64,000 nucleotides of DNA from an uncultured delta proteobacterium (GTDB lineage: Bacteria; Desulfobacterota; Binatia; Binatales; Binataceae). The stretch covers positions 96,001-160,000 of the forward strand of contig CAVRVY010000003.1 of assembly GCA_963724765.1 (NCBI GenBank), given 5' to 3'. The notes below the pieces were generated by a model, which saw only the letters and a program-made list of their open reading frames with translations, searched no databases and was not told the DNA's origin. Both the position numbers and the translations under genes were made by a program. This document shows positions 12,513-45,301 of the stretch, piece after piece; the first letter of the stretch is position 1, and every line of letters begins with the position of its first letter.

Positions 12513-13106
<594 letters not shown>

Positions 13107-22560: not shown

Positions 22561-22563
22561 TAG
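21481..22563 (+). CDS. IS630 transposase
   Basis: LCVDEKSQ, IADNYATHKHP, PTYSSWLNQIERWF. Confidence 0.95.
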   Translation: MGRPNAALMITQSERSQLRSIVRSRSLPHSLVRRAQIVLLSAAGAANREVARRCGVSAPVVSLWRQRYQQRGIAGLHAELRPGRPRSHSDEQVAGLLRKVLHSKPAVATHWSVRSVAAHTGISKSTVARYFALFGLQPHRSKSFKLSTDPFFVEKVRDIVGLYLNPPDNALVLCVDEKSQVQALERTQPVLPMGLGYVEGVTHDYYRHGTTTLFAALDIVDGGVISQCKPRHRHQEFLSFLKHLDANMPADLELHLIADNYATHKHPKVRAWLASHPRFHLHFTPTYSSWLNQIERWFALITQQAIRRGSFRNVRELVGKIDAYVAHYNAHKRPFVWTATADSIFNKLQRICKLINGTQH

Positions 22564-28162: not shown

Positions 28163-28639
28163 TCAATCTTTCTTATTCGGTGGCGTATCGGAGTCTGATT
28201 CGTCGCTGCCTGCGGCGTCAGGAGTGAGGTAGCCAGCCCGCTGCAGAATTGTCGCGATCTCGAATTTGCGCTGATGCTTTTCCTCCGCCGACGGCGGCGG
28301 CGGAAGTGGTGAACGTTCGGCTACGGCTGAGCGCGAAGCTTGGTGTTCTTCGATTCTCGGAATCTGATGCGCCAGCAACAACTGCATGGCGCGATGGTCA
28401 CCCTGCGCCGCCTTGTTAACCAGCTGTTTAAGGGTTGCTTCCAGCTTGGTTAATGATCTCCGGACGCCGTTCTCCGAGACGATGACACGCTCCCGAAGGG
28501 CCTCGTCCAAGAGCGTCGATGCGTTTCGCGAGCCGCGTGGGCGACCTTTGATGTTTCCAGAGTGGCCCTTCTTGAATTGCGTATGTCGCGGCGGCTTGCC
28601 GTAGCCTATGTCGTAATCTCTGCCTTCTCTTGCTCGCAT
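28163..28639 (-). CDS. DUF5681 protein (terminase small subunit-like)
   Basis: IGYGKPPRHTQFKKGHSGNIKGRPRG, KQLVNKAAQGD; directly upstream of TerL. Confidence 0.85.
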   Translation of the reverse strand: MRAREGRDYDIGYGKPPRHTQFKKGHSGNIKGRPRGSRNASTLLDEALRERVIVSENGVRRSLTKLEATLKQLVNKAAQGDHRAMQLLLAHQIPRIEEHQASRSAVAERSPLPPPPSAEEKHQRKFEIATILQRAGYLTPDAAGSDESDSDTPPNKKD

Positions 28640-30006
28640 CCCTTTTCCTCCATCTCGGCTTGGACTTCGTTGAATGATCGCTCGGACGAGACATGACGGG
28701 CGTTATCGCGAGTAAACGCCTGCCATCGACGGATGATGGTGTCGACGTAAAGAGGATCTATTTCGAGTCCGTAACAGCGGCGCCCGGTGCGCTCTGCTGC
28801 GATGATTGTCGTGCCGCTGCCGAGAAATCCATCGAGCACGACATCCCGTCGTGAAGTGCAGTCTATGATCGCGTCTGCAACCAAGGCGACGGGTTTCACT
28901 GTTGGATGGAGCGCGAGCAGCCGGCCCTCATCCCCTGAACGCGAGAATGAATTCACCCCGGGATAATTCCAGACATTGCTCCGGTTGCGGCCATACTGCC
29001 CTAGCTGAACATTGTTCCGATGAGATCCGCGGCCGTGTTTGAATACGAATACCAACTCATGTCGGCTGCGATACAGCGATCCCATGCCTGCGTTATCTTT
29101 TGACCAGACGCAGAGGTTCTTTAGCTCCGTATAGACTTCGCGGCCAGCCGCCAACAGCTCAGCCATGTGCCTCCAGTCCATACATATGAAATGGAGCGCG
29201 CCCTCGACGCTATGCCGGGCGTGCAGTGAACAGGTTGTGGTGAGAAATGTCCTGAACTCGGCTTCGCTCATCTCACCAGAAGCCATCGCGAAATCGCGAT
29301 GTCGGACGGAGCCGAGACCGCTAACATTCCCATCGATTCGGACATTGTATGGTGGGTCGGTAAACACCATCTCTGCCTGCTCGGTCTGCATCAGCGCCGC
29401 ATAAGCGATTGGGTAGCGTGCATCCCCGCAATACACCCGATGCTCGCCCAACTGCCAAAGATCACCGGTACGCGTCACGGCCGGACCCAACGGGAGCGCC
29501 GACAGGTCATCGGCGTCATCCTTGTTCTCGTGCGTGGAGGAAGTTAGACCCTCGATTCGCATATCGATTTCGCCCATGTCGAAACCGATTGTCTCGAGGT
29601 CGAAATCGAGGTTCTGTACCGACAATTCCTTTAGTTGCTCAGCTAGCAATCGGTCATCCCAAACCGAGTTTTCCGTGAGTCGATTGTCGGCAATCATGAA
29701 TGCCCGCGCTTGAGCCTCGCTCAGATGGTTGAGGCAAATGGTGGGCACTTCGGTCCGGCCAAGCAGCTGGCAAGCCACGATACGGCCGTGGCCTGCGATA
29801 ACCTTTCCTTTTGCATCCACCAGCACCGGCACGTTGAAGCCGAAGGTCTCGATGCTGCGCGCGATCTGGCGGATCTGCCTGGGGCTATGCGCGCGCGGGT
29901 TCTGGGGATCGAGCTTGAGCTCGGAAATCGGACGATAGGCTACCTGAACCCGCAGGCCGGGCTTATCGAGCCCTCTCGTGAAATGTCGAGCAGCTGATTT
30001 TGTCAT
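28606..30006 (-). CDS. ParB-N domain + N6/N4 DNA methyltransferase
   Basis: NPRAHS...IAGHGR...IADNRL (ParB); TDPPY, HPTVKP, DGFLGSGTT; start inferred from the paralog's leader. Confidence 0.93.
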   Translation of the reverse strand: MTKSAARHFTRGLDKPGLRVQVAYRPISELKLDPQNPRAHSPRQIRQIARSIETFGFNVPVLVDAKGKVIAGHGRIVACQLLGRTEVPTICLNHLSEAQARAFMIADNRLTENSVWDDRLLAEQLKELSVQNLDFDLETIGFDMGEIDMRIEGLTSSTHENKDDADDLSALPLGPAVTRTGDLWQLGEHRVYCGDARYPIAYAALMQTEQAEMVFTDPPYNVRIDGNVSGLGSVRHRDFAMASGEMSEAEFRTFLTTTCSLHARHSVEGALHFICMDWRHMAELLAAGREVYTELKNLCVWSKDNAGMGSLYRSRHELVFVFKHGRGSHRNNVQLGQYGRNRSNVWNYPGVNSFSRSGDEGRLLALHPTVKPVALVADAIIDCTSRRDVVLDGFLGSGTTIIAAERTGRRCYGLEIDPLYVDTIIRRWQAFTRDNARHVSSERSFNEVQAEMEEKGCEQEKAEITT

Positions 30007-30135
30007 AAGCAGTTTCATAGCTCCCAAAATCTCGGTCGAGAGAAGTAATTGCTCGAGTCGTACGTGCTCCGGTACGTGTTCCAATACATTATCGATTTGA
30101 CGCTAGGTTCTATAATTCTCTACAATGATTTGATT

Positions 30136-31014
30136 ATGACAACACTCGAACGATGGGACTGGGTCAATCTCGGCGATAACGAAGGACGTGTGGACCGCCC
30201 GTCAGCGGGGCTTGCTTGGTCCACCCCTTCAGCCGCCGAGCTTGACGGCGAGTGGTTGCTTTTTCTCTATCGGATGCGCGTTCTTCGGCGTGGCTTACGT
30301 GCGTTTCAGGTTCGCACGGTGAAGGCGAGCGCTGGGCTGCTCACCGAATTCATCCAGCTTGAAGAGGCGCCTGCGGAGCGTATTCTCGCTTATGCTCACC
30401 GGCACGGTCCGTTTGGCTTCTGCCAGCATGGCGACCCCAGCCACCGTGTTCTTTCCGAGGGCTGCCCTGCGGCGGTCGCCACGACTGGCGCCGGCCAAGT
30501 CGCCGTCCGTGAAGCTCTCCAGTGGTGGCGCAACCTCGCGGGTCACGCCCGCGCGCTGCTCAACGCAGCGGCTCAACTGTTCAAGGGCCGAGTCGATGAC
30601 ATAACTCTCGTGCGGCTCAATCCTGGACTGCTTCTTAGGCCGATGCGGGTGCTCAGGGCTGCGCGGCGCGACCCGGCGCCCTTCGTCGCCTATGGTATGG
30701 AACTCTGGCTGCGCTTCTTTCAGGTGCGGCCGCGCGCCACCTACAATCCGCGGCGTAAGCGGTTCGAGATGAGAATTAGCGGTTCGTCGGCGCTGGCGGG
30801 CGCGCTGGCACTGCAAATCATGCTCGCGCTGACGCGCTCAGCCGGCATTGCGGTATGCTCGGGCTGCGGTAGGGTATTCCCGCCTTCCCGGCGACCCAAC
30901 CCCAATAGGAACACCTACTGCGACGCCTGTGGAATCAGAGCCGCCTGGCGCGAAGCGCAGGCTCGCCGACGTGAGAGAGAAAGCAATAAGTCGCAAGGCC
31001 GAAGGAATGCATAG
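30136..31014 (+). CDS. Hypothetical protein with C-terminal CGNR-like Zn finger
   Basis: CSGCGRVF...YCDACGIRAAWREAQARRR; close paralog at 44429-45301 fixes the start MTTLERWDW. Confidence 0.85.
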   Translation: MTTLERWDWVNLGDNEGRVDRPSAGLAWSTPSAAELDGEWLLFLYRMRVLRRGLRAFQVRTVKASAGLLTEFIQLEEAPAERILAYAHRHGPFGFCQHGDPSHRVLSEGCPAAVATTGAGQVAVREALQWWRNLAGHARALLNAAAQLFKGRVDDITLVRLNPGLLLRPMRVLRAARRDPAPFVAYGMELWLRFFQVRPRATYNPRRKRFEMRISGSSALAGALALQIMLALTRSAGIAVCSGCGRVFPPSRRPNPNRNTYCDACGIRAAWREAQARRRERESNKSQGRRNA

Positions 31015-31178
31015 ACATGCGGCGCCGATCTCGCACGCCTAGATCGTCGATTGGCAGAACGGACAGCTGACAAACCGCGAATCGTCGTGGCGAGGTATCG
31101 ATAATCATTTTCGAGACAACACTTCCGCGTCCCGCTCGCTAGCTCATCTTGGTTGCGGCAGGGCTCCCAAAGGCTCGC

Positions 31179-31361
31179 TCCCTGATCCGAAGAGGATCAG
31201 GGAATCTGAATTCCCTGATCCACGATCGAAATTCCCTGTTCCGATCTCTAGGGAATTCTCCAGAAAAGCTTAATGCCCACGCGAGGTTTTCACGCCGCTG
31301 GACGCCGAAATAGCCCTGAAAAGACGAAATTCCCTGTATTTACCTTGTTGATCAGGGAATT
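31179..31361. repeat. Array of (AAT)TCCCTG/CAGGGA(ATT) boxes, copy 1
   Basis: Boxes at about 31179, 31198, 31209, 31230, 31249, 31328 and 31353 in direct and inverted orientation. Confidence 0.9.
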
Positions 31362-31368
31362 GCTCGAT

Positions 31369-31410
31369 GGAGACTGGTTCGCATCAGACTGCATCATCCG
31401 CCACACAGTC
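31369..31410. other. Putative att core resembling a tRNA 3' end, copy 1
   Basis: ggagactGGTTCGcatcagactgcatcaTCCGCCAcacagtc, about 230 bp past the recombinase stop; inverted homolog at 43749-43788. Confidence 0.6.
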
Positions 31411-31638
31411 TGGCATGCTTCCCTACATTATGGAGAAGCGATGAAATCGGCGCGTGGGGCGCGATTCACGCGCGGCCGTGGACGCGGAGAATGCCAACGG
31501 CAGGGGCTGAGCGTGAAAATCGCTTAGAATTCTCTGTTCGCGATTTTGGCATGTCCATCTGCGAACCGGCCGACATTTTGCGGAGAAGCGTTCTCGGGAA
31601 GAACGCTGCCTGACGCAAGCAACTACGCCCGCGTGAGT

Positions 31639-33327
31639 CTATCGGGATTCCAGAGCTTGCTGCTGCGCACTCCAGAGCGGAGGGAGTTCGATTCTCTGGG
31701 TCATCGCTAGAGTGCTGAGGTCTGCGGGCTGCCGGCCTTCGACGATCGCCTCGACAATCCTGGGCGCCAGGAACGCCAGCCGCATCACGCGCCGCACGTG
31801 ACGGGCCGTAAGATGTTCTCGCCTGGCTATCTCGCCGATCGACCGCGCCCGACCCGCCAACAGATCGTTGGACCATCGATACGCACGGGCGGTCGCGTCG
31901 AGCAGCGGTAGATCGATGCGTGCTAAGGATGCGGCGTCACCATCAATGATCAGCCGCATCTCAACGCCGCGCCGCTTCATCCGCATCGGGACGAATCGAC
32001 TTAGCGCGGGTTCGTTCGGAGTCGCGACATCACGCCCTTCATCGGACGAGATCGGCAATTTGATAGAAATCTGGATGCCGTCCTTCTTGAGTCCGACACG
32101 TTCGATCAGCCGGGTCAGTGCTGATGCAGCTTCCGCTTCGGATCGCAGACTTTGAATCCAAGCTTCGGCGACCTTGAAGATGGAAGGCAATCGGTTCGCA
32201 TCTATGTTGAGCTCCTCGATCGCTCCGGCGATTGCCGCTCGATCACTGAGAATCTGCTGAGTCGCGGCGCGAACGGCTCGTTCAAGCTCCGGTGCAGATA
32301 CGCGCCACCCGCGCCGCTCATCTTGTACCGACCCTCTGACCAATCCACGCGAGACGTAGTAACGATAGTGGCGCGTCCCCTTTACCGCGCCCTGCACATA
32401 CAGGGGCTCGCCGTTCTCGTCGAACAGTTTACCCGCGAGCGGGCTGGGCGGCGCCTTGGTTGGGCGTTCGCGATGCGTGGCGGCTTGATCGCGCAAGCGC
32501 AGTTGGACCTTCTCCCAGAGCTCGCGGCTCACTATTGGCTGGTGCTGCCCTGGATGGCGTTCCTTCTTGTGGCGGATCTCGCCGAGGTAGATCGGGTTCG
32601 ACAGCAGCTCATAAAGAGCTCCGCGCGAGAATTGCCGACCTCCAGATCGCACGCCGTTTTTCGACACCCGGACTTTGGAGACAATCTCGCGGCGCTTTAA
32701 ATCGTTTCTCAGGAGCCTGACGGAACCGAGTTCGAGATATCGCTCGTAGATGTGTTTCACTGTCACGGCTTCGGGCCGATTGACTACCAGCCGGCGATCG
32801 CGGACGTCGTAGCCCAGTGGCGATACCCCGCCCATCCACATTCCCTTGCGCTTGGAGGCGGCGATCTTGTCCCGGATCCGCTCGCCCGTTACTTCCCGCT
32901 CGAATTGCGCGAACGAAAGCAGGACATTCAGCGTGAGTCGGCCCATCGAAGTGGTCGTGTTGAATTGCTGCGTGACTGCAACAAACGAAACGCCGCGCGC
33001 GTCGAACACCTCGACCATCTTGGCGAAGTCGGCAAGCGAGCGCGTGAGGCGATCGACCTTGTAAACGACCACCACGTCGACGAGTCTCCGCCTGATATCT
33101 TCCAACAGGTGTTGAAGGGCGGGACGTTCCATCGTCCCGCCCGAAAGGCCGCCATCATCGTAGGCGGTCTTGATGAGCCGCCAGCCCTCGCCCGTCTGGC
33201 TCTTGATGAATGCCTCACACGCCTCGCGCTGCGCATGCAGGGAGTTGAAGTCCTGCTCCAGCCCTTCTTCGGAAGACTTCCGCGTGTAGACCGCGCAGCG
33301 TCGTGTTCGCGACCTAGCGTGTTCCAT
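31639..33327 (-). CDS. Large serine recombinase
   Basis: CAVYTRKSS catalytic motif, VYKVDRLTRS, FAQFEREVTGERIRDK, PLGYD, LSNPIYLG. Confidence 0.95.
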   Translation of the reverse strand: MEHARSRTRRCAVYTRKSSEEGLEQDFNSLHAQREACEAFIKSQTGEGWRLIKTAYDDGGLSGGTMERPALQHLLEDIRRRLVDVVVVYKVDRLTRSLADFAKMVEVFDARGVSFVAVTQQFNTTTSMGRLTLNVLLSFAQFEREVTGERIRDKIAASKRKGMWMGGVSPLGYDVRDRRLVVNRPEAVTVKHIYERYLELGSVRLLRNDLKRREIVSKVRVSKNGVRSGGRQFSRGALYELLSNPIYLGEIRHKKERHPGQHQPIVSRELWEKVQLRLRDQAATHRERPTKAPPSPLAGKLFDENGEPLYVQGAVKGTRHYRYYVSRGLVRGSVQDERRGWRVSAPELERAVRAATQQILSDRAAIAGAIEELNIDANRLPSIFKVAEAWIQSLRSEAEAASALTRLIERVGLKKDGIQISIKLPISSDEGRDVATPNEPALSRFVPMRMKRRGVEMRLIIDGDAASLARIDLPLLDATARAYRWSNDLLAGRARSIGEIARREHLTARHVRRVMRLAFLAPRIVEAIVEGRQPADLSTLAMTQRIELPPLWSAQQQALESR

Positions 33328-33808
33328 CGCGGCGTTCCTCTTGTGATCGCTTGAGGCCGAAGAACAACGGCCCCGACCATCGAGTCCCGGTGATCTCGCG
33401 CGCGACTCCCGAGAGCGAACGATAACGCTTGCTCCGGAAGCAAAATCCTTTTTCGAGAACGCTTACTTGACGGCTGATACCGCGCCATTCACGCACCAGC
33501 ACCGCGCCGGGCCGCACGATGCGAGACGGTTCCGCGGCCAAAGACGACTCGTTAGCGCCATCATGGGCCAACTCGGCCAGCACGCGTCGGGTTGAGGGCT
33601 TAAGACCGCCAAAAGCCTTTTCCTGGAGGCGATATGCGATCGCGCGCGTCAGGAACGATCGGCTGATATCGCGCGACGGCGCCTTTCCGAACATAGCTTT
33701 CCAGCGCTCGCGGAGTTCGTCGATGCCTAGCTTCGACAGGCTGGCAATTTCCGACGCGAGGGTTTCACGGTCCCGAACCTGTCGCTTCATAGTCGTTTCT
33801 CTCGACAC
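33314..33808 (-). CDS. DUF2924 protein
   Basis: AIAYRLQEKAFGGL, GAVLVREWRG, SLSGVAREITGTRWSGPLFFGL; overlaps the recombinase start. Confidence 0.9.
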   Translation of the reverse strand: MSRETTMKRQVRDRETLASEIASLSKLGIDELRERWKAMFGKAPSRDISRSFLTRAIAYRLQEKAFGGLKPSTRRVLAELAHDGANESSLAAEPSRIVRPGAVLVREWRGISRQVSVLEKGFCFRSKRYRSLSGVAREITGTRWSGPLFFGLKRSQEERRDGTR

Positions 33809-34156
33809 TTCTCGGCTTTCAACTCGGCTTCAAAACTCATATGTGCTCCTCCTTGAGCCGCGCTATTTGCTGCCCCAATGACACACACATTGCTCGATTC
33901 GCGACATACAGCCAGTCGTGCGCGGCGCGCGACTTGGGCATTTACGCTCTCATTAGACCTCGTTTTCTCTGCTGCGATTTCGCTGGTTTCATTCGCCTTC
34001 CAATCGCCTCGATCAGACTGTCGATTCGGGCCAATAGCCGGCTTCTCCCTTTTCTGCGCGAATGACGTTGGAAAAACCGGGGAAACCACTCGCTTCACGC
34101 GCCGACCAGAGCAAACATCCCGACGAGCCCTTACGGCTCAAGGAGATTTAGAGGGA

Positions 34157-34441
34157 ATGGAACACGCGAAACAGGCGAACGGAAGCGGGCATGAACTATC
34201 GATCGGACATTCTCCATCTTCGGCCGGGAAGAAAGCTGTCCGGAAAAAGGCTGAGTCCCCACGGCCGCTCCGGAAGGAGGCGGGCAGCAAGTCGAAATCA
34301 GGGAAACTGGGTTGCCGCTATTGCGGGAGCGATGACCTGGCTCCGAGTTTCATCAAGCGGCGGGATCGGCGATGCCGCAAGTGTTTCAGTAAACGCTATG
34401 GGTCGGCGGCCCGGGCGAGGAAGGCGAAGGTCAAGAAATAG
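34157..34441 (+). CDS. Small basic protein with CxxC...CxxC
   Basis: aggag/gaggg RBS; CRYCGSDDLAPSFIKRRDRRCRKC; followed by a terminator. Confidence 0.7.
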   Translation: MEHAKQANGSGHELSIGHSPSSAGKKAVRKKAESPRPLRKEAGSKSKSGKLGCRYCGSDDLAPSFIKRRDRRCRKCFSKRYGSAARARKAKVKK

Positions 34442-34464
34442 TTCGAACATGACTTCGGATGAGT

Positions 34465-34498
34465 GGCCGGGCTCGAAAGGGCTCGGCCCCTTTCGTTT
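34465..34498 (+). terminator. Intrinsic terminator
   Basis: ggccgggctc-gaaa-gggctcggcc hairpin followed by tttcgttt. Confidence 0.65.
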
Positions 34499-34642
34499 AA
34501 GGCTTGGTCTAGGAGCGAGGCTCTACGAAACTGGTAACACTTCGCCCTTCAAGTTGTCCAAATAGGCTGCGGCCTTTGGGAGTCGGTTGCACGCTATTCG
34601 ATAGCGCCCAGAATCTCATGCACTCAGGGAGGTTGCCTCCGT

Positions 34643-36357
34643 ATGTATCGCGACGTGGTGCAATGGTCGAAGATCCGACATCGGATTCTGGTGAAAGGCG
34701 ACTCGCGTCGCCAGGTTGCCCGCGAGACTGGCATCAGCACGAATACCATCGACAAGATGCTTGCCCATCGCCACCCGCTCCCATATGGGCCAAGAAGCCA
34801 TAGATATCCAAGGCTAGGGGCACACGTGGCCTCGATCCGCCGGATGCTCCAGAAGAACGCTGGTCTCCCGCCCTCGGCCCGGCTCTCAGTCAAGGACATT
34901 TACGAACGGGTTCGTGATGAGGAAGGCTTCCTCGGTGGATACAGCACGGTGAGCGACTATGTTCGTCCGCCCGCGAGCGATGAAGACTGCATCTGGAAAC
35001 AACCTTACGATTTGCTGATATTGCTCGAGAAGAAGCGTGTGCTCGACTTTTTAGTCTTGCTTTCTTGCGCCGATCCACCCGTCATCTCGCCGGCTCGAAA
35101 AAAGCAGTTCTTTCATGATGTCGGTCGGGTGATCGGCATCAACCCGAAGCCCAACAACAGAGCAGCGCTCCGAAGCGCCGCGTTCGAGTGGATGCGCTCC
35201 GTCCTTCAGAAGGAAATCAGCGACGACGCCCTGCGTCGCGAGATAGGTGACCTGCCCGACCTCAACCGCTTGCTACGCCGCCTGTATGAAGGACGCCTAT
35301 CCGATCGCAACCGGGTCAATGGTCGTTCTGGCGAGCCGACGCGGTCTGAGCAGCCGAATGATCTGCAGTTTTCTCGATATCGACAATAAATCCTGTCGAA
35401 AATATCTTCAGAGCTTCGAGCGCGGGGATTATACAGAGTTATTCGCGCTTCAAATCAAGCCTAACCGGAAGTTCGACGATGAGGTGATCAAGAAGGCGAT
35501 CTTCGGCCTCATGCACGAGCCCCCGTCCAATCACGGCATCAATCGCACGACTTGGATCATGGCCGACCTGTCTCGGGTACTGAGAGAAACAGGCAGACCC
35601 GCCTGCCCCGACGTGATCCGGAAGATCACGAAAGCAGCGGGATACCGCTGGCGCAAGGCTCGAGTCGTACTAACATCGAGCGACCCCGAATACTCCAAGA
35701 AACTCGATCGCATCCGCTCGATCCTCTCCGGGCTTTGTCCGGACGAAGCGTTCTTCTCGATCGACGAATTCGGTCCCTTCGCCGTGAAGATGAAGCCTGG
35801 CCGCACACTCACTGCCCCCGGCGAGCAGCGCATTGTGCCGCAGTGGCAGAAATCCCGCGGCTCTCTGATCCTGACGGCGGCGCTTGAGCTGTCCGGCAAC
35901 CAAGTCACCCACTTCTACAGCGCGAACAAAAATACAACCGAGATGATCCGAATGATGGAGCTTCTGGTCGAGCAATATCGCGACCGGCGGAAGGTGTATC
36001 TCTCATGGGATGCAGCCTCCTGGCACATCTCGAAGCGATTGTTTGAGCATGTCGAAAGCCTTAATGCGGTTGCCGCTAGGGGCGCTGCACCGATCATCGA
36101 GACCGTTCCATTGCCGTCAGGTGCTCAGTTCCTGAATGATTGAATCCGTCTTCAGCGGGATGGCTCGCGCGATCATCCACAACAGTGACTACCAGACACT
36201 CGATGACGCGAAGACAGCGATCAATCGATACTTTGAAGAACGGAACGCGCACTTTAGGCAGCATCCCAGAAGAGCCGGAAAGAAGATCTGGGGCAAGGAG
36301 CGCGCACCCGCCACTTTTTCCGAAGCAAACAATTGCAAGGATTCACGTTACCGGTAA
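34643..36357 (+). pseudogene. IS630-like transposase with IstA-like N-terminal HTH, two frameshifts
   Basis: SRRQVARETGISTNTIDKML; FFSIDEFGP, LSWDAASWH, FLN/IESVF; breaks near 35315 and 36138. Confidence 0.75.
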
Positions 36358-36998
36358 CGGTGGCTACTTGCCTCGGTCATCGATCAAAATGCATTCTCAA
36401 ACGGGCGCCGGCTATGGTCGTCAGCTCGACGATTCTTGATGGCTTACTGACCGCTGCATAAGTCGCCTGTCAGTTCGAATTTGACTCGCTCCGCCATGCA
36501 GTCTCAGGTTTGAGGCATTCTCCTGGGATGACCGCAAAAAAGCGCGCGTGTGGGGCCGATGCGCGCGCCTCACCGGCACCAGAGAGACCTCACATGTCGA
36601 GTTATGCCGCGTGACTTCGATTTTCTCTCCGTGGGCGATCGGCTATGTCTTGCTCATTGAACAAGTCCGGGCGATGCTCGATAACGATTTTCTCCAGGCT
36701 CAGGCCGCCCCGTCGCTTGGACCGCTGAGCGCATTGTCGCGGTACAGCGGCAACGGGCGCACGAGCAGGCGCTGGCGTCGGTCAAGCCTAGGAGGTACCG
36801 CCGGCACGGCCGACGCTGAAGGACAGGTGGTGCTCGGACTTGGTGCACCGACGCAATCGCAACCAACACCTTGTCCCAAGGGCCTCACTGGCCTCCGTTT
36901 TCCCGCGCCTAGCCGAGCCGGCGCGACGGTTATGGCCATGCTCGCTGGCAAGGCCGTCGAAGTAGGCGGCGCACCGGCACAACTTTGTCCCGGCTGAA

Positions 36999-37373
36999 TT
37001 AGAATGAATTTCCGATTTCAATAATGTAGCCGTCCGGGTCGGCGAAATAAGCGTAGGCAACACCGGGCGCGTGTTCGCCGCGGCTCAGCAGTTTTCCACC
37101 AGCTCGTTCGACCTGCTCCACGCCATCATCCAGCTGGCCCTTGTCGGTGAGTGCGAAGCCGAAATGCGACACACCGCCGCCTCCAATCGGCTCACTCTTG
37201 TCGACTTCGCAGAGCGTGATTGTGTCGTGGACGCCTGGCGAGCCGAGGAATACCATCCGCTGGCCTTCCCAAAATTTGACCTCAAGGCCGAATGCCTCCT
37301 GGTAGAACCTGCGTGAGCGTTGGATGTCACTGACGTTCAGGTTGATGTGATTAAGTCCGCGCGACTTGACCAT
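36999..37373 (-). CDS. VOC/glyoxalase family protein
   Basis: LNHINLNVSD..SRRFY, SHFGF, YFADPDGYIIE. Confidence 0.92.
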   Translation of the reverse strand: MVKSRGLNHINLNVSDIQRSRRFYQEAFGLEVKFWEGQRMVFLGSPGVHDTITLCEVDKSEPIGGGGVSHFGFALTDKGQLDDGVEQVERAGGKLLSRGEHAPGVAYAYFADPDGYIIEIGNSF

Positions 37374-37529
37374 AGGTTGGCCTCCTGAACTCGGCGTCCC
37401 GCGACTCACGCTCTCGCCCTGCGTTTGCTATTTTGCACGCTAGAGCGCGCGATCGGAATCGCGGAGCGGATCCCTAAGCGGACCGCGTATGGAGGCGTAT
37501 ACCTGGGGCGTGCGAGCGTCGGGCCTCGT

Positions 37530-38309
37530 TCATTTTCGATACTTGCCGAAATCCGGCTTGCGCCGCTCCATGAAGGCGTTGCGCCCTTCCATCGATTCCT
37601 CATTGCCGTAGTACAGCCCAAGCGCGGTCATCCCGAGCGCGCCGATTCCCTTGACGTGATCGGTTTCGGCATTGAACGAAGCCTTGGCGATCCGAAGCGC
37701 GGTCGGGCTCATCGCGAGCATCTCGCGCGCCCACGCGCACGCCTCATCCATCAGTTGCGCTGCGGGGACGACCTTGTTTACCAGTCCCATCGCGAGCGCC
37801 TCCTCGGCCGAGTACTGGCGGCAGAGATACCAGATCTCTCTCGCCTTCTTTTCGCCTATCAGGCGCGTCAGGTACGCGGTGCCAAAGCCCGGGTCGACGC
37901 TGCCGACGCGCGGCCCAACCTGTCCGAAGCGGGCCGTGTCGGCGGCGATCGTGAGATCGCATACGACGTGCAGAACGTGGCCGCCGCCGATGGCGTAGCC
38001 GTTGACCGCGGCGATGACGGGCTTCGGGATGTCGCGGATGATTGCGTGGAATTCGTCAACATTCATCCCGCCCTGGTAACCGCCGCCGCTGCGAATCGAC
38101 TGATCGCCTCCGGAACTGAACGCGCGTCCCGCGCCGGTCAGAATGACGACCCCGATCGTGCGGTCGTACCATGCGTCGCGAAATGCGTCGATCATCTCGT
38201 GCACGGTCTTTCCTCGAAACGCGTTGAGGACGTCGGGCCGGTTCATCGTTACGGTCGCGATGCCTTCGGCCTTGTCATAGATGATGTCTTCGTACGGCAT
38301 TGGATTCAC
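37530..38309 (-). CDS. Crotonase family, 2-ketocyclohexanecarboxyl-CoA hydrolase (BadI)/MenB-like
   Basis: FSSGGDQS, GYAIGGGHVLHVVCD, GSVDPGFGT (BadI-type rather than MenB GSFD). Confidence 0.8.
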   Translation of the reverse strand: MNPMPYEDIIYDKAEGIATVTMNRPDVLNAFRGKTVHEMIDAFRDAWYDRTIGVVILTGAGRAFSSGGDQSIRSGGGYQGGMNVDEFHAIIRDIPKPVIAAVNGYAIGGGHVLHVVCDLTIAADTARFGQVGPRVGSVDPGFGTAYLTRLIGEKKAREIWYLCRQYSAEEALAMGLVNKVVPAAQLMDEACAWAREMLAMSPTALRIAKASFNAETDHVKGIGALGMTALGLYYGNEESMEGRNAFMERRKPDFGKYRK

Positions 38310-38584
38310 TCCCCGGGTTGGCGCGCGGCGATTTCAATTTCGGTCGGCGGGCGCGCGATGCCAATTCTCTGGCGGACTCTACGCCAAATCGGTCACACGA
38401 GCTCTTCGCGCGCGGCAGCCAGGTAGTCCGGTCCTTGCCGCCGGCGTCGAGCGCCTGCAGGACGTCGAGGCGATCAGGAGATCCGCTACGGACGACAGAA
38501 CGAGCCAGCGGCTTGGCGCGGACCACGACCACAGGCGTTGGCGTTCACGAAGGGCGTAGAGCGCAGCGCGGAGACCGGCGTTAC

Positions 38585-39658
38585 TCATGATACGGCCTCG
38601 GCTTTCAGGACGAGGCGGCCGGTGACCTTGCCGTCACGCAGGCGCATCAGTGCTTCGTAGGCGCGGCTCTGCGGCACCGTGGCGACCGGCAGCGCCGGCA
38701 GCTCGCCATCCTGAGCGAGCTTGACCAGCTCCCGCAGTTCCTTTGGGTTGCCGACATAGCTGCCCTGAACGGTCAGCGCGCGGATCGCCATGATCGGCAG
38801 CGGCAGCATCAGTTCGCCGCCGAACAGGCCGACCTGGATCAGCTTGCCACCCTTCGCCAAGGCGCTGAAGGCGAAGCGAGCGGTGGCGGTGCCGTTCACC
38901 AGATCGATCACGGCAAGCACCGGGCCGCCAGCGGCTTCGATGATGCGCTTGGTCACGGTCGGGCCGTCGCCGCTGCCGTCCACCACCTTGTGCGCACCGG
39001 CCTTCAGCGCCGCATCGCGCTTTTCGGCGCTGACATCGACGCTGATGATGTTCTGATGCTTCAACGCCTTCAGCACCGCGATCGCGTTCAGGCCCAATCC
39101 GCCCGCGCCCACCAGCACGATCGGCTGCGTCGGGGTTAGCGGCATCGCCTTTTTGATGGCGGAAAAGACCGTGATGCCGGAGCAGGCATAGGTCGCGGCG
39201 ACCGCGGGATCAAGCGTGCCAGGATCGACCAGATGACGTGGATGCGGGGCAACGACGTGCGTGCCGTAGCCGCCGTTCTGGTATACGCCCAGGCTGCGGT
39301 TCGCGACCGCGCACATGTTGTCCTCTTCGGCCAGGCATTTCTCGCATTTGCCGCAGCCCAGCCACGGGAAGACGATGCGCAGGTCACCGACCTTCACACC
39401 CTTCGCATCAGGACCCAGCTTCACCACGCGGCCGACGATCTCGTGCCCCATTGCCAGCGGCAGGACCACGCCACGATCGGTCAGCGACATCCTCTGGCCG
39501 CCGCCGACGTCGTAATAGCCCTCCCAGATATGCAGGTCGGAGTGGCAGACCCCACAATGCGTGACTTCGAGGAGGATCTCGGTGCCCGTCGGCTCCGGCG
39601 TCGGCAACTCGATTTCCTTCAGGGGCTGCCCGTTTTCTACCACGGCCCATGCGCGCAT
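38585..39658 (-). CDS. Zn-dependent alcohol dehydrogenase
   Basis: CHSD, GHE, CxxCxxC...C, GAGGLG. Confidence 0.95.
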   Translation of the reverse strand: MRAWAVVENGQPLKEIELPTPEPTGTEILLEVTHCGVCHSDLHIWEGYYDVGGGQRMSLTDRGVVLPLAMGHEIVGRVVKLGPDAKGVKVGDLRIVFPWLGCGKCEKCLAEEDNMCAVANRSLGVYQNGGYGTHVVAPHPRHLVDPGTLDPAVAATYACSGITVFSAIKKAMPLTPTQPIVLVGAGGLGLNAIAVLKALKHQNIISVDVSAEKRDAALKAGAHKVVDGSGDGPTVTKRIIEAAGGPVLAVIDLVNGTATARFAFSALAKGGKLIQVGLFGGELMLPLPIMAIRALTVQGSYVGNPKELRELVKLAQDGELPALPVATVPQSRAYEALMRLRDGKVTGRLVLKAEAVS

Positions 39659-39738
39659 GTTTGTCTCCTGCTTTCTGACGTTTGCTAGATGGATAGCGCG
39701 TGGCGCGGATTAAGCAAGACCGGGCTCTGCCGGTTAGA

Positions 39739-39840
39739 ATGGTGGCGGCCATCGCTGTCGTGGTCTATGGCATCTACGCGGCTATGGGCAATAACATCGG
39801 TTCACTCGCCAGTGGCGTCGATTCCGCTCTGACCAAACGT
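39739..39840 (+). pseudogene. Flp pilin fragment
   Basis: AAIAVVVYGIYAAMGNNIGSLASGVDSAL; the N-terminal G-xx-EY motif is missing. Confidence 0.45.
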
Positions 39841-40322
39841 GTAAAGGCAGGATTAGTCTGGCTAGTGCCGTTGGTGTTCGGCCCTGCATTCGCTCCGGTC
39901 TCCGGTAATCTGCGCCCGCGCCAGCGCCGGGATCGTGAGCAGCGCGAGAAGTAGAAGCGAACTTAGCCAACGCACGATCAGCATGCCGGGTAAGCGAAAA
40001 CGGACTGCGGGCGCAGGAGCGCCAGGCGCCGCGATCACGAGCAAAGAACCGATCCAACGCTTCATTACCATCCCCCTTGCCGATAGCCCCAATCGCCACC
40101 GAATCTGCCGGGGCGAAGGCCGCGTTATCGCGTTATAATGGTTCGTGATCTGCATCGTGGAGAGCGGGTAAGTATAAAAAGCCACGTCCGCGATGATGAT
40201 CCCGGAGGTCGTGTACCCGTTGCCGTTATCCAATCCCGAACTGAACCCGCCGCCGCCTGTGCTCGGGGAACCTCCGCCCGATTCCGCCACGCCCGATCCG
40301 CCGTCCACGCGCGCGCGTTCGC

Positions 40323-40799
40323 GTGGACGGCTGCACTGATCGGAGCGGCATCACCGGCGTGATGCGCGCGGCGTTCGATTGCGCGCTGAATTTCGCACGG
40401 ACCGACAAACGATCCGGGCCGGTGCCGGTGATCGAGTACCAGAATGTCGGCTACATGCTGGCGGATCTGAAAATGAGAATCGAAGCGGCGCGCTATCTCA
40501 CCTGGAAGGCGTGCCATTACTTCGATGCCACCGGCGGGCTCGGCGAGGAACTTCCGATCATCACCAAGGTATATTGCTCGGAGCTTGCGGTGCAGGTTGT
40601 GTACGACGCGATGCGGCTGGTAGGTGCCGACAGCTACACCGACATGCAGCCGCTGACGGGGCTGATGCAGGACGCGCTCGCCTTTCCTCTCTACGACGGC
40701 GGCAACATGGGCGTCAGGCGCCGGCAATTGCGCGCGATCTTCCGCACGCCGGGGTACGATCCGATGGCGGCCACGGAGGGGCGGCCACCGACGCGCTGA
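40323..40799 (+). pseudogene. Acyl-CoA dehydrogenase C-terminal fragment
   Basis: YQNVGYMLADLKMRIEAAR, AMRLVGADSY, LYDGGNMGVRRRQL. Confidence 0.8.
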
Positions 40800-40921
40800 C
40801 CCGGCAGCGCTAGGGGTTGCGTTGCGGCTCGAGCGGCAGGCTCGCCCGTCCCGGTCAGCGCGGACGAGTCGCTATGCACCGTGCCCATCGGTTAGACGCG
40901 GCGCCTGGCGACTCATTGGCA

Positions 40922-41203
40922 TCAGAAATCGGCGGGGACAGACTTCAGCAACTTGCGGTCCGCTGGGCTGAGCGCAGCGTTGGCCTGGTCGAATGCGCGT
41001 TGCGCCTCACGGCACTCCTGCAGGGCGGCCGCGACCGCTGAGCCGTCCGGCCAGCTGTTCGGGTCGAAAGGCGTTGTCGACGGCCCATCCCTGAGCGACC
41101 TCAGCAACCTCTCGGCCTTGTCCAACATATCCGAGAGCTGTTCTTCCGCGTCGGTCGCACGTGCCTTCGCTTTCAACCAGGCTAGAACTTGTTCGTCCGG
41201 CAT
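40922..41203 (-). CDS. Small helical hypothetical protein
   Basis: 93-aa ORF with gaggga RBS. Confidence 0.5.
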   Translation of the reverse strand: MPDEQVLAWLKAKARATDAEEQLSDMLDKAERLLRSLRDGPSTTPFDPNSWPDGSAVAAALQECREAQRAFDQANAALSPADRKLLKSVPADF

Positions 41204-41350
41204 TTTTAGATCCCTCTTCGCGGTAGGTATCTTCGACGAACGTGGCGATTAAAATAATCTTTCTCGGAACGGAAGGAAAAAGAAAAGTGCAGACCCTCTC
41301 GGATCCGCCCTCATCGGCCCGGGAAGCCCTTCGCGGGGGACAGGACAGGC

Positions 41351-41508
41351 TCGACACTACTTTTGCCCAAGGTGCGGTGTGGCGGTTTTGCGTAATCCCC
41401 GCACTTCACCCGATACTAAATTTTCGGTCAATGTCCGCTGTCTTGCGGGGGTTGACGTGTCGAAGCTAAAGGTCACGCAATTCGATGGTCGCAACAAGCT
41501 TAAGGTTT
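41351..41508 (+). pseudogene. GFA/Mss4-like protein C-terminal fragment
   Basis: RHYFCPRCGV...SVNVRCLAGVD...FDGRN. Confidence 0.6.
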
Positions 41509-41689
41509 AAGGAAAGATCGTCGCAGCTCTAAACTCAAACCGTAACGTAGTGATGATGCTTCCCCCCTGGCCAACGATCGCCAATCGGAGATGGCCGCTT
41601 CGCGGATTCAAGTCCAGATCTACTCCCGTAGCCGATGAGCAGGGACAAGTGCCTGTGAGCACTTTGTCAGCATCATCCAAGGAGACGCC

Positions 41690-41794
41690 GAGAAAGCTGT
41701 CTTCGCATCTTTTGCTGCCATATTTCACAATTGCCCGAATTGCCGCATTGAGTCCCGGACAATCTCCACCGCCAGTCAGTACGCCTATCTTCAT
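41690..41794 (-). pseudogene. pfkA: 6-phosphofructokinase N-terminal fragment
   Basis: [23 protein letters not shown], after which homology is lost. Confidence 0.75.
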
Positions 41795-42607
41795 AGCCCC
41801 TCCTTCTTTGATGCAGATTGTTGCCTGTTACGTAGGAAAAATACACGGGGTTTCGCGATTTGAAGCCGGCGATAGCCTAAAGAACGCACCGAAAAGGCCG
41901 GAGTCATAAGGGCTCCACGCTTGCCGGCTTGACCAGCACCATCGCATTCAGGCAATACGGCCGGCCACAACGGATAGAGCGGGACCCCAGACTGCTGCGC
42001 GACTGGCGCGGCGCCCAACATCAAGTGATCGTCCGTGAGCACGGCGTCGAGTTTCAGGGGGAGACGACGCTCCAACAAAAAAATTAAAGCGGAAGCGCCA
42101 TGAAAGGTTCCTATTGCTCGCTTTCCTTGGTCGATGGGCGATTGGAGGGCGAATGGGGGCCGGCGAAATCGCAGAAGAAAACTAGATTCAGTAATAGCGG
42201 GAGTTGGCCGAAGGGCACCGGCTCGGTTCCTCGACAGAGAGAATCGAGCATTAATTACCTGCTGCTGGCCGAAACTGAGATTCTCCGGTGGGCGCCCCCT
42301 CTCAGACGCGCTGGACGCGCGCGGAGAAAGAGCAGATCGACGCTCGACCACGACATCGACCAGCCTGCCGCGCTCCCGAGAAGGGTTTTACTTATCGGGA
42401 GTATCTTCGCCGACGTCCGATCCCGGCAACTTGCCAGCTTTGGGCAAACTTGTCACCCGATGCCGAATCTCACCAGTCACTACCATTTGTAGCAGGACTC
42501 GGTCCGTGTTGGGGGGCAACGCACGCCTGAACTCAATCTTGTTCCGAATGCTGAAGGGTTTGGACTCAGCTAATGCCCGGATAGCGACGGTGGTAGTAAC
42601 CGTCGAG

Positions 42608-43246
42608 CTATGCTGCCGGCCGCTGGCCCGTACCACGGAGGTTATAGGCCATCAATAGCAAGTCGTGGCAACGACCTTCGCGATCTTCTGCCCAGTCTGG
42701 CAGCAGCGCTTCCACATGAAAGCCCAGCCTCTCGAACAGCGCCCGGGCGCTTTTATGGTCCGCCACCATCTGCACGGTGATTTTTCTAAGGTCCAAAATG
42801 CCGGCCAGGGCCACAATCTCCGCGCAGAGCCCCTCTCCGAGGCCCCTGGATTGCCACTCGGGTGCTATGTTGATCTGAATCTCGCCGACCTTTCGCGTCC
42901 ATCGAAGCGGGTTCACGTGGAGGCTGGCGTAACCCGACAACGTGCCGTCAGGCTCGGCCAAAAGAGTGACCGTGGCGCCCTTCTCGATACTCTTTATCCA
43001 CTCGTCCACGTTCGCCGGGTGCGTGATATCACTGCGCAGAAAGAGCAGGTCTTCCTGGGGAAGGCTATACGCGAACTGGAGCATTGCGGCCTTGTCTGCC
43101 GCACCCATCAGCCGCAGCGAAACTGGCCGGACCTGAGGCTGGCCACCCGGCCTTACGCGCAAAAACGAGGGCCCTGCTGGCACTTGGCCTTCGTCCAACT
43201 CAATATTTTTAGGATAGCGCTGGCTGATCTCCGGTTTCGTACCCAT
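42608..43246 (-). CDS. GNAT N-acetyltransferase
   Basis: PEWQSRGLG acetyl-CoA loop, ARALFERLGF. Confidence 0.85.
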   Translation of the reverse strand: MGTKPEISQRYPKNIELDEGQVPAGPSFLRVRPGGQPQVRPVSLRLMGAADKAAMLQFAYSLPQEDLLFLRSDITHPANVDEWIKSIEKGATVTLLAEPDGTLSGYASLHVNPLRWTRKVGEIQINIAPEWQSRGLGEGLCAEIVALAGILDLRKITVQMVADHKSARALFERLGFHVEALLPDWAEDREGRCHDLLLMAYNLRGTGQRPAA

Positions 43247-43579
43247 AAGGTTGAGACCTCCTTGGTCGCGATAACAATTCGCTCCCGCCGAGGCTGCGTG
43301 GCACGAGAGTCAGGCAGCTTTGAATCCAGGCGCAAACCTTGATGCAGCTTGGCACAAACACAAGATAGCAGATGGCGTCACCAACGCCCAAGCCATGATG
43401 CAGCGGTCGCCGGTCTTTGCAGGCAGAGCACAGGTTCCTAACGAGCGAACTGGCGCTTGGAGGAATCCGAGACAACCAGCGTCTCACGGGGGCCCCTTGC
43501 AAGATTCCGATTCCGTGTCTCACCCCTCTTGGGACCGTAACGTCGCGGCTGGCGCGAGCCCGTGGAAAGCTCGCGAGGC

Positions 43580-43705
43580 AATGAAAGACTCCTGGTCGAA
43601 GGCATGGTGGCTGAGGCCGTTAAGCAGGGCAAGCTCTGGCTCACAACAGGACAAGCCAGCATTCTTGCCGAAGAAATTCCGGCGGGACTTTCACTGACGA
43701 CGCGC
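43580..43705 (+). pseudogene. Possible collapsed C-terminal remnant of a serine recombinase
   Basis: AEAVKQGKLW..TGQASI..IPAGLSLT loosely echoes the C-term of 31639-33327; same position relative to the att-like core. Confidence 0.3.
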
Positions 43706-43748
43706 GCGCGGACTTCGAGCAATTCTCCGAGAAGTACAAAAACTGATG

Positions 43749-43788
43749 GACTATGGTGGATGACACAGTCTGCTGCGAACCATTCTCC
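43749..43788. other. Putative att core, copy 2 (inverted relative to copy 1)
   Basis: gactatggtggatgacacagtctgctgcgaaccattctcc vs the reverse complement of copy 1, gactgtgtggcggatgatgcagtctgatgcgaaccagtctcc. Confidence 0.6.
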
Positions 43789-43795
43789 GCGGGCA

Positions 43796-43991
43796 AATTC
43801 CCTGATCAGCAGGAAAAAACAGGGAATTCCCTCGATTTTAGCCCGAACCTGAGCCTCCGGGCAGGGAAAAGGCCTTGATCCACTGCAGGTTTTTGAACGA
43901 ATTCCCTACTCCAGCGAACAGGGAATTTTCAAAGCCTCACAGGGAATTAAATGGGTGCATCAGGGAATTTCTTGGAGCGGTTTAGGGAAAA
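43796..43991. repeat. Array of AATTCCCT/CAGGGAATT boxes, copy 2
   Basis: Boxes at 43796, 43820, 43862, 43900, 43919, 43940, 43961 and 43983; the last four are spaced 21, 21 and 22 bp. Confidence 0.9.
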
Positions 43992-44428: not shown

Positions 44429-45301
44429 CTATGCTGTGTTTGTCCGCCTCGCTGTTAACTTCCGCGCGCGTCGACGTGCCTGTGCTTCCCGCCAAGCGGC
44501 CCTGATACCACAGGCGTTGCAATAGGCATTTCTGTTCGAATTGGGCCGCCGAGAGGGTGCGAAGAGCTTTCCACAACTGGAGCAGACCGCAATGCCGGCC
44601 GAGCGCGTCACCGCGAGCATGATCTGCATTGCCAGCGCGCCCGGTAAGGGCGGCGCACCGCCGATCCGGATTTCAAAGCGCTTGCGCCGCGGATTGTAAG
44701 AGACCCGCGGGCGCACCTGAAAAAAACGCAGCCACAGTTCCATTCCATAGGCGACGAAGGACGCGGGGTCGCGCCGCGCAGCCCTCAGGCGCGGCGCCGA
44801 AAACAAAAGCTGCGGGTTGAGCCGGGCCAGGGTTAGGTCATCGACTCGGCCCTTGGAGAGCTGGGCCGCCGTGTTGAGCAGCGCGCGGGCGTGGCCTGCA
44901 AGATTGCGCCACCACTGAAGCGCCTCACGCACAGCGGTTTGACCGGCGCCGGTGGTGCAAACGGCCGCAGCGCAGCCCTCGGGACGAAGGCGGTGGCTGG
45001 GATCGCCATGCTCGCAGAAACCGAACCGGCCGTACCGGCGAGCGTAATCGAGAATGCGCTCGGCCGGGGCCTCGTCGAGCTTGACGAATTCGGTAAGCAC
45101 GCCGGCGGCCGCCTCGACTTTGCGAAATTGGAGCACGCGTCTGCCGCGTCTCAAAGTACGTATCGGATAGCGAAAAAGCAGCCATTGACCGTCGAGCTCG
45201 ACCTCAGGGGCAGCGGACCAATTAGGCACCGCTGCTGGGCGATCCACCCGTCCTTCGTCGTCGCCGAGAGCCACCCAGTCCCACCACTCTAGTTTTGTCA
45301 T
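44429..45301 (-). CDS. Hypothetical protein with CGNR-like Zn finger, paralog of 30136-31014
   Basis: Long identical stretches (AVREALQWWRNLAGHARALLN, FVAYGMELWLRFFQVRPR); CSSCG...YCNACG. Confidence 0.87.
   Translation of the reverse strand: MTKLEWWDWVALGDDEGRVDRPAAVPNWSAAPEVELDGQWLLFRYPIRTLRRGRRVLQFRKVEAAAGVLTEFVKLDEAPAERILDYARRYGRFGFCEHGDPSHRLRPEGCAAAVCTTGAGQTAVREALQWWRNLAGHARALLNTAAQLSKGRVDDLTLARLNPQLLFSAPRLRAARRDPASFVAYGMELWLRFFQVRPRVSYNPRRKRFEIRIGGAPPLPGALAMQIMLAVTRSAGIAVCSSCGKLFAPSRRPNSNRNAYCNACGIRAAWREAQARRRARKLTARRTNTA

Follow-up and report, generated by a model that had tools for sequence, protein, structure and literature searches.

We analyzed a window of 64,000 nt from an uncultured delta proteobacterium of the Binataceae (assembly GCA_963724765.1, contig CAVRVY010000003.1, positions 96,001 to 160,000), in which two copies of a noncoding array of short, phased boxes lie in two inverted homologous gene modules, here called A and B. 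Sequence comparison with other genomes indicates that these arrays, in most copies, form the P arm of the attachment (att) site of islands that encode a large serine recombinase (LSR) and a DUF2924 protein. We consider it highly probable that the array is physically an att arm and favor, with distinctly less assurance, the view that it acts in recombination through a module composed of the C-terminal helix–turn–helix (HTH) domain of the recombinase and DUF2924. The initial annotation of this region had described a protein-loading platform, that is, an origin, a pac/cos-type site, or an att arm. This description is supported in its general form, and the att arm is the best supported of the three options because its distance to the crossover core is fixed; the gene neighborhoods support neither an origin nor a pac/cos-type site.

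Geometry of the Arrays and the Adjoining Cores

The window contains nine exact matches to AATTCCCTG, all inside the two clusters; in 100 shuffles the mean was 0.33 and no shuffle exceeded 2. Array A (31177..31361, minus strand), delimited by sequence and box search and read outward from its core, is composed of box 1 (31353-31361), a degenerate middle box, box 3 (31328-31336), a 70-nt spacer (31258..31327, minus strand), and the inverted box 4 (31249-31257), followed by direct boxes at 31230-31238, 31209-31217, and 31177-31184 and an extra inverted box at 31198-31206. In this minus-strand reading the first inverted pair spans 34 nt (31328-31361), the gap 70 nt, and the second pair 28 nt (31230-31257); the direct boxes at 31230 and 31209 have a period of 21, and a further inverted pair occupies 31179-31206. 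Array B (43796..43991, plus strand) repeats this plan, with box 1 at 43796-43804, a degenerate middle box, box 3 at 43820-43828, a 71-nt spacer (43829-43899), the inverted box 4 at 43900-43908, direct boxes at 43919, 43940, and 43961, and a degenerate box at 43983, such that the first pair spans 33 nt (43796-43828) and the second 28 nt (43900-43927). The boxes, spans, and direct-box period reported in the initial annotation are all present in the sequence. Array A only is closed by a perfect 25-nt hairpin-forming inverted pair (31179-31203). A hidden Markov model built from the array finds no third array in the window.

Alignment of the modules reveals an att-type core, absent from that earlier description, at a distance of 25 nt from box 1 in each copy. 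Its sequence on the tRNA-sense strand, GGTTCG-N5-GACTG-N6-CC-N6-CAGTC, resembles a tRNA 3′ end. Core A (31370..31410, plus strand) is a complete P.P′ site, of attP type or a tandem junction, with GAGAC at 31370-31374, GGTTCG at 31376-31381, GACTG at 31387-31391, CAGTC at 31406-31410, and a crossover CC at 31398-31399 that we place by analogy with an arm swap in Sphingobium described below. Its putative P′ arm (31411..31638, plus strand) extends from the core to the recombinase stop codon, the LSR gene ending 229 nt beyond core A. Core B (43747..43787, plus strand) has a P half only, as in an attR-type site, with CAGTC at 43766-43770, CGAACC at 43776-43781, and a probable crossover GG at 43758-43759.

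Conservation of the Array as a DNA Site

Scanning GTDB for the first inverted pair yielded at least 121 loci, 80 with flanks, of which up to 10 kb on each side of the locus were analyzed; all counts of homologs given here are among the matches listed, and boxes 1 and 3 do not vary because the search pattern fixes them. The 125 matches analyzed (123 from GTDB and the two window copies) comprise 55 arrays with a core (53 from GTDB and two from the window), 31 arrays without a scored core, and 39 plain hairpins. We set the plain hairpins aside as background; 28 of the 39 have at least three extra complementary pairs and the look of terminator hairpins, and they are largely from Bacillota and Bacteroidota. 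A core score of at least 11 is found beside 55 of the 125 matches versus 2 of 5000 random positions. Core-bearing loci occur mostly in Alphaproteobacteria and Acidobacteriota, and also in Binatus soli (Binatota) and a small number of proteobacterial bins of other or unassigned affiliation. Among the coreless arrays named below, those of Acidobacteriota are compact, with boxes at 62, 73, and 84.

The spacings are highly conserved. The distance from core to first box is 23–25 nt in 45 of the 55 core arrays; an inverted box is present in 40 of the 79 arrays examined, and in 38 of these 40 the gap from box 3 to it is 68–72 nt; and the second pair spans 27–28 nt in 35 of 37. A third box within the first pair, likewise absent from the initial annotation and degenerate in both window copies, is exact in 35 of the 55 core-bearing arrays. 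The first distal direct box is at 87–90 in 45 of 69 arrays, at 98–99 in 11, and at 109–112 in 4, and box-to-box periods (n = 100) are 21–22 nt in 65 cases and 11 nt in 14. Phase coherence of the boxes is 0.59–0.66 at periods of 10.5–11 versus 0.17 at 9.5 and 0.36 at 12, and an A two bases 5′ of CAGGGAA is conserved in 98 of 106 distal boxes. The box may bear some likeness to the Noc half-site. A motif resembling what we take to be the consensus of integration host factor (IHF) occupies one fixed register; of 46 spacers, 14 contain it there with at most two mismatches, compared with a shuffle average of 0.39 and no more than 4 in any shuffle. In spacer A this register has at least three mismatches. 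Searches by blastn with array A against plasmids and phages return nothing and with array B against plasmids only chance-level matches; blastn misses homologous arrays because their spacers are variable. With locus L014 as query, it returns three plasmid records, each of which contains the array.

The initial annotation had offered, as its alternative to a DNA site, a structured RNA with paired CCCUG/CAGGG stems. The single strands of the window copies do fold better than shuffles (z −2.63 and −2.31) but into different structures, and neither has an Rfam match at the gathering score. In an alignment of 35 of the 55 core arrays, mostly with standard spacing, the one stem that RNAalifold recovers is that imposed by the search pattern, none of the 9 pairs of which is compensatory, and the covariation of the three named helices is that of shuffles (0.104 vs. 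0.099, with 127 of 500 shuffles as high). Moreover, direct boxes outnumber inverted ones and their spacing follows DNA helical repeats. Given spacings in helical multiples, the register of the IHF-like motif, and the lack of a covarying stem, the boxes are best regarded as DNA sites. The comparative evidence indicates that the RNA reading is largely refuted, and we accord it only a minimal chance.

Crossover Position and tRNA Targeting

The Sphingobium plasmid AP027331.1 contains DUF2924 and LSR genes followed by a P′ arm that continues into tRNA-Gln. At a distance of 64 kb, the remnant of an LSR C-terminus precedes a related P′ arm, which leads into a P half with a CAGGGAA array. The two P′ arms are identical over their last 31 nt up to TGGCTG and diverge exactly after the central dinucleotide; this arm swap places the crossover in that core. 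We interpret the pair, from its sequence, as the trace of tandem integration at one tRNA, with tRNA.P′ at one end and P.P′ where two islands meet.

The core is a pseudo-palindrome, GACTG-N6-GG-N6-CAGTC, both halves of which are exact in 17 of the 55 core arrays. Its central dinucleotide corresponds to the two bases that precede the tRNA NCCA end, and the P′ half restores NCCA. Core hexamers match several tRNA ends (TGGCGG in 22/55, TGGTGG in 17/55, and TGGCTG in 7/55). The GGTTCG hexamer is a copy of the tRNA T-loop. Its distance from the crossover is 17 nt in P halves (44 of the 46 scored) and 14 nt in tRNAs (four of four) and in site C of the window (see below); we infer that it may be the ZD motif. 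A second box type, GAGAC, occurs on the P′ side of complete junctions, with a mean of 1.6 per 230 nt on the core side in 15 complete junctions, 0.35 in 37 others, and 0.31 at random.

The order of LSR end, P′ arm, core, and array recurs in loci L017, L033, and L073, at the second site in L010, and in L127, which leads us to regard module A as a putative tandem junction or intact attP and module B as a putative attR-type end. An insertion sequence (IS) lies within the att core of L073 (10060-10590), both halves of which are still recognizable. IS interruption of its LSR prevented matching of the far end of an element on a Bradyrhizobium plasmid.

The window also contains a B.P′-type site, C (36472..36503, plus strand), with a tRNA-like half of tRNA spacing followed by a P′ half (CAGTC 36499-36503) and a presumed crossover CC at 36491-36492; it has neither an array nor a full tRNA. 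Its putative P′ arm (36504..36735, plus strand) contains a GAGAC box and is weakly similar to P′ arm A (2/500 shuffles as high). Between site C with its arm (36472-36735) and core B (43747-43781), which point toward one another, lie 7.3 kb of metabolic cargo. Their half-site types and opposite orientation would fit an attB × attP inversion of the intervening 7.3 kb, which we offer as an unproven scenario. The left flank of core B has a borderline likeness to P′ arm A (22/500 shuffles as high), and B may therefore instead be a decayed junction and not an inversion partner.

Related fragments are scattered through the homologous loci. Fragments of tRNA 3′ tails without a full tRNA, most of them joined to P′ halves as in site C, occur in L134 (5623, 16271, and 19383), L076 (13924), and L080 (2046). 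Six pseudo-tRNA half-site junctions with a CGCTGG center lie within 20 kb in L006 (3547, 9769, 9885, 11249, 18519, and 18682), with further examples in L044 (3045) and L068 (1344); these may be proliferating nonautonomous att repeats. Same-orientation core-plus-array pairs 5–7 kb apart are seen in L095/L096 (one contig, 4.7 kb), L045 (4905/10001), and L010 (10001/17135), which suggests cassette-like tandem stacks.

The Recombinase and DUF2924 as Candidate Binders

The LSR of module A (31639..33327, minus strand; 562 aa) contains Resolvase and Recombinase domains (Pfam E-values of 2e-38 and 6e-16; Foldseek 5e-17), and its structural matches include the Bxb1 and A118 integrases (Z 16.9 and 16.4). 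The structural model, with a predicted local distance difference test score (pLDDT) of 89, has the standard domains plus an extra C-terminal domain (PHROG 14161) at about residues 473-562 (bases about 31639-31911). This domain resembles the ParB/SopB-type HTH, aligning to the DNA-binding domains of Spo0J, ParB, KorB, and SopB over about 80 residues (Z 5.8–6.5, root mean square deviation 2.7–3.5), and weak matches to SoPB_HTH/HTH_ParB (E-values of 0.002–0.13) are found in 5 of 15 LSR homologs. It is encoded as a separate gene in AcaML1 and Ralstonia.

DUF2924 (33314..33808, minus strand) is encoded directly upstream of the LSR in 14 of 15 loci. Its own model is of low confidence (pLDDT 57) and suggests a SAP/HeH-like N-domain and a RAMA-like C-domain; VIA structural matches are SAP/HeH-like (Z 4–6.7), the C-terminal half matches CcrM (Z 3.9), weak RAMA matches below the cut-off occur in 5 of 9 homologs, and Foldseek finds no match at an E-value of at most 0.001 in PDB or BFVD. 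ESMFold2 predicts a complex of LSR residues 165-562 with DUF2924 at a score of 0.75 in three runs (best control 0.00), with contact agreement of at least 80% and a partner pLDDT of at least 71; among solved pairs 116 of 157 attain this mark and among mismatched pairs 2 of 215, a calibration that applies only roughly to the alignments used here. The predicted interface joins LSR 476-553, which contains W552 and the conserved LAFLAP motif, with residues 14-81 of the DUF2924 N-domain. These models support an enzyme of two subunits in which one or two DNA-binding domains would be to spare. The RAMA domains of CcrM and MPND contact the DNA backbone and make no base-specific contacts (PMC9963953); for this reason the ParB-like HTH is the likelier base reader than the RAMA-like domain of DUF2924. 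In light of the predicted interface, DUF2924 could instead gate DNA binding.

Gene Neighborhoods and Competing Functions

Within the flanks analyzed, genes of the family (LSR C-domain, DUF2924, methyltransferase, or DUF5681) accompany 12 of 35 core arrays and 8 of 20 coreless arrays and none of the 26 plain hairpins, with locus L045 counted in both array classes. The commonest neighbor is the ParB-methyltransferase, encoded within 6 kb of 12 of 53 array loci and reading away from the array in 10 of the 12, and terminase large subunits are found in six flanked loci. Both window copies adjoin methyltransferase–DUF5681–TerL modules that lack capsid and replication genes in Pfam searches. These neighborhoods are the grounds for the main rival explanation, a cos/pac-type packaging site abutting att, at which DUF5681 would bind the boxes, IHF bend the spacer, TerL cut, and a helper capsid package the island. 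An inverted box, direct boxes, and IHF also resemble lambda cosB, where IHF bends the DNA. However, the methyltransferase gene lies anywhere between about 0.1 and 6 kb from the array in GTDB loci and 22 kb from it in Sphingobium, whereas the att core keeps its distance to within a few bases; nor does the array hold the fixed position beside a terminase small-subunit gene that marks cos and pac sites, the distance reaching more than 20 kb. DUF5681 is near only 11 array loci with flanks (6/35 core and 5/20 coreless), and terminase large subunits A and B differ in best PHROG family although the boxes are identical and the methyltransferase and zinc-finger genes of the two modules are homologous. 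We therefore judge a packaging site unlikely, though deserving of more weight than the other alternatives.

Among the binders named in the initial annotation, DUF2924 is plausible and DUF5681 is found near only those 11 loci. We reject the zinc-finger protein as a general binder; 0 of the 80 flanked loci encode it, and a search for its family returned only 58 proteins, one named Binataceae. Locus L052 has an ABATE/CGNR zinc-finger gene as neighbor, and the window zinc-finger protein has no similarity to the CGNR protein encoded there.

The 21–22-nt periods, the ParB-like HTH fold, and the ParB-N domain of the methyltransferase would be at home in a centromere- or iteron-like site of the excised circle, bound by the LSR HTH or used with the ParB-N domain. 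Such a site would have no need of a fixed distance to the crossover, and the spacers, at a GC content of 49%, are not strongly AT-rich as an unwinding element would be. No Rep, primase, or helicase family is found among the 114 neighboring proteins scanned, nor is Rep in the Pfam scan of the window; DnaA boxes number 0 in 20,307 nt, where only 0.35 are expected. We consider this reading improbable, and the same low standing applies to an operator array, looped by IHF, for the integrase operon across attP or for the methyltransferase–terminase operon. Phased direct and inverted boxes would suit a cooperative repressor, and the methyltransferase gene usually reads away from the array; set against this, the neighbors include no consistent regulator, the nearest window gene is convergent, array A (the one scanned) contains no promoter-like site, and the geometry is tied to the crossover.

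A Model of the Arm and the Evidence Against It

We lean toward a model in which a P arm of about 200 bp is bound by the LSR/DUF2924 module and IHF as a lambda-like accessory arm of islands at tRNA ends. Repeated integration at one tRNA would generate P.P′ junctions such as module A, and island ends would be P.B′ sites such as module B. LSR dimers would bind the core, while the LSR C-terminal HTH and DUF2924 would bind the ANCAGGGAA boxes, the proximal triplet and then the distal phased cluster. Bending of the 70-bp spacer by IHF would allow the arm to fold onto the core-bound recombinase in a lambda-like intasome, licensing synapsis or setting direction. The fuller proposal, a two-subunit heterobivalent serine integrase with an IHF-bent intasome on a 200-bp arm, the T-loop as outer motif, several tRNA 3′ ends as targets, and tandem stacking, is more tentative, and we hold it somewhat less likely to be right than wrong.

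Several observations weigh against the accessory-arm interpretation. Neither window copy has a good IHF match, and no gene of the family lies in the flanks of 23 of the 35 core arrays that have them. The initial annotation had named two ways in which its reading could fail, variable spacing in homologs and occurrence independent of these genes; the first does not apply, and the second applies to these 23 arrays. Orphan arrays fit an arm at the island end opposite the integrase or a remnant of decayed islands. Some arrays have no recognizable core (e.g., L025, L108, L114, L052, L065, and L106), and in five loci the array is on the tRNA-proximal side, 90–170 nt from the crossover. The shift of the outer motif between P and tRNA halves is 3 bp and not the 5 bp of serine integrases, and one Ralstonia tRNA-like half has a spacing of 11. 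With respect to the proteins, the Z-scores of the LSR C-terminal domain are of a size that the tool regards as common, the predicted DUF2924 contact covers part of the second helix of the HTH, and the RAMA domains of CcrM and MPND offer no precedent for base-specific contacts. In the LSR tree 6 of 11 inner branches are unresolved, and it provides no test of whether arrays mark one clade. Finally, AcaML1 has DUF2924 and a split LSR yet no array in its fully scanned genome, the right end of which is IS-disrupted, and no array lies within 20 kb of the LSR/DUF2924 match in seven regions (Paracoccus, Erythrobacteraceae, Ralstonia, two Shinella, one Sphingobium, and one Sphingopyxis). Because of AcaML1 and these seven regions, the arm is not universal in the family.

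The tRNA-proximal layout is seen in L018 (4948-5237), L019 (10001-10295), L078 (1-207), and L087 (301-520), with the recombinase beyond the array in three loci. In L113 (301-601) a tRNA-Arg(CCG) is followed by a P′ half, with outward-pointing box arrays on both the 5′ and 3′ sides.

Genes of the Window Modules

The two modules are 70–81% complementary and share a zinc-finger gene, a ParB-N methyltransferase, DUF5681, and a terminase large subunit; DUF2924 and the LSR are in module A. Zinc-finger protein A (30049..31014, plus strand), a lineage-restricted neighbor, is encoded convergently on the array, followed outward by ParB-N/N6-N4 DNA methyltransferase A (28606..30084), DUF5681 A (28163..28639), and terminase large subunit A (26544..28097), all on the minus strand. 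DUF5681 is in the position of a terminase small subunit, a function it may therefore have. In module B the corresponding genes encode zinc-finger protein B (44429..45301, minus strand) and, on the plus strand, ParB-N/N6-N4 DNA methyltransferase B (45416..46792), DUF5681 B (46722..47129), and terminase large subunit B (47119..48741). Named homologs of DUF2924 and of the zinc-finger protein are from Binataceae. No capsid, portal, or replication gene was detected in either module by Pfam (131 of 179 window open reading frames scanned), ARAGORN finds no tRNA in the window, and Rfam yields no match there at the gathering score.

The region is rich in mobile elements. Transposase/IS-type genes around the modules lie at 3199-4275, 12522-13103, 13603-14640, 21457-22563, 34643-36143, and 51238-52302 and comprise DDE/DUF772, IstB, IS110, two DDE_3, and one rve integrase-core gene. 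A 116-nt direct repeat with 93% identity (58208-58323 and 58816-58931) flanks a universal stress protein gene.

Relationship to Known Systems

A literature search that most subscription papers fell outside yielded no account of the array and no function for DUF2924, and a "virtual pulldown" study of recombination directionality factors (RDFs) could list DUF2924. The papers found for DUF2924 with a recombinase are on Wolbachia, those found for the box sequences are on other topics, and DUF5681 appears merely as a listed entry; PMC10299305 notes only that a recombinase is encoded downstream of DUF2924. The AcaML1 and phage WO modules are alike in having a homologous LSR with DUF2924 directly upstream. 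Unlike the window modules, the AcaML1 genome has no CAGGGAA array. AcaML1 also encodes two free copies of the C-terminal domain as "small subunit" genes (L125, 21347-22200) and has a CCACCA-containing direct repeat at its genome end (L126, 4330-4364).

A further comparison is with tycheposons and elements resembling phage-inducible chromosomal islands, which like the islands considered here integrate in association with tRNAs; a minority of them encode an LSR, some carry terS, and tandem junctions occur (accessible text of 10.1101/2020.12.28.424599). That text mentions no att-arm array. Unlike these elements, the islands considered here combine DUF5681 (terS-like), TerL, and the ParB-methyltransferase, with no replication or capsid gene detected. 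Membership of that class would call for an integrase at a tRNA, a replication module, and a terS or capsid gene; integrase and terminase genes are present in the window, and no replication gene was detected by Pfam in its elements, which are incomplete.

By enzyme and core, sequence places the system among the large serine integrases (Bxb1, phiC31, A118/LI, and TP901-1), with which it shares the Resolvase and Recombinase domains, the fold, and a pseudo-palindromic core with a central dinucleotide and an outer motif that is shifted between P and B halves. In integrase LI the ZD motif is shifted 5 bp between attP and attB, as given in section 14 of PMC3783163. According to the accessible passages of the respective papers, known LSR sites are 40–50 bp (PMC11795197) and typically without accessory sites (PMC1470463), and the predicted binding place of known RDFs is the DBD2/coiled-coil junction, DNA binding being in general not among their functions (PMC11795197). 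The system described here differs in a conserved arm of about 200 bp fixed to the core, a 3-bp shift, and the extra ParB-like HTH domain, and DUF2924, unlike known RDFs, is predicted by the model to dock on that extra domain (476-553) and not on the DBD2/coiled-coil junction.

If the fuller proposal is correct, this would be the first functional assignment of DUF2924, as a DNA-binding directionality or architectural factor of a serine integrase. The arm interpretation gives DUF2924 a testable role, and a large subfamily with an accessory arm, an extra HTH domain, and a syntenic partner would mean that serine integrases, too, have evolved a lambda-style architecture. The arm contrasts with the properties for which these enzymes are valued, short sites of 40–50 bp and RDFs without DNA binding, in the accessible text of PMC11795197 and PMC1470463. 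Mining of LSRs with minimal sites and no partner would then be expected to score such enzymes inactive, and a T-loop-reading enzyme could be a broad-host tRNA-targeting tool. The core-plus-array is a noncoding marker of probable island ends in soil Alphaproteobacteria, Acidobacteriota, and Binatota.

Control of a serine recombinase by accessory sites and a host bending protein has precedents in the resolvases and invertases, such as the Tn3 and Sin res sites with HU and the Hin/Gin enhancer with Fis. Those are small enzymes that carry out resolution or inversion, unlike the integrase-type enzyme at tRNA ends found here. The closest architectural parallel is lambda, the Int of which is a tyrosine recombinase with an N-terminal arm-binding domain, unlike the serine catalyst described here, for which the proposed arm binder is a C-terminal HTH with a separate protein. 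In lambda-type sites the integrase bridges core and arm sites, and the extra HTH domain and predicted partner would be consistent with such bridging here. Lambda attP spans about 230–250 bp and consists of a core with direct and inverted arm-type sites and IHF sites between them, in the account given in the accessible text of PMC1470463. The arrays are alike in size, in repeated arm sites, and in an IHF-like site in fixed phase from the core, a likeness of sequence pattern that leads us to posit, by analogy, that the system works like lambda attP without being a member of that class.

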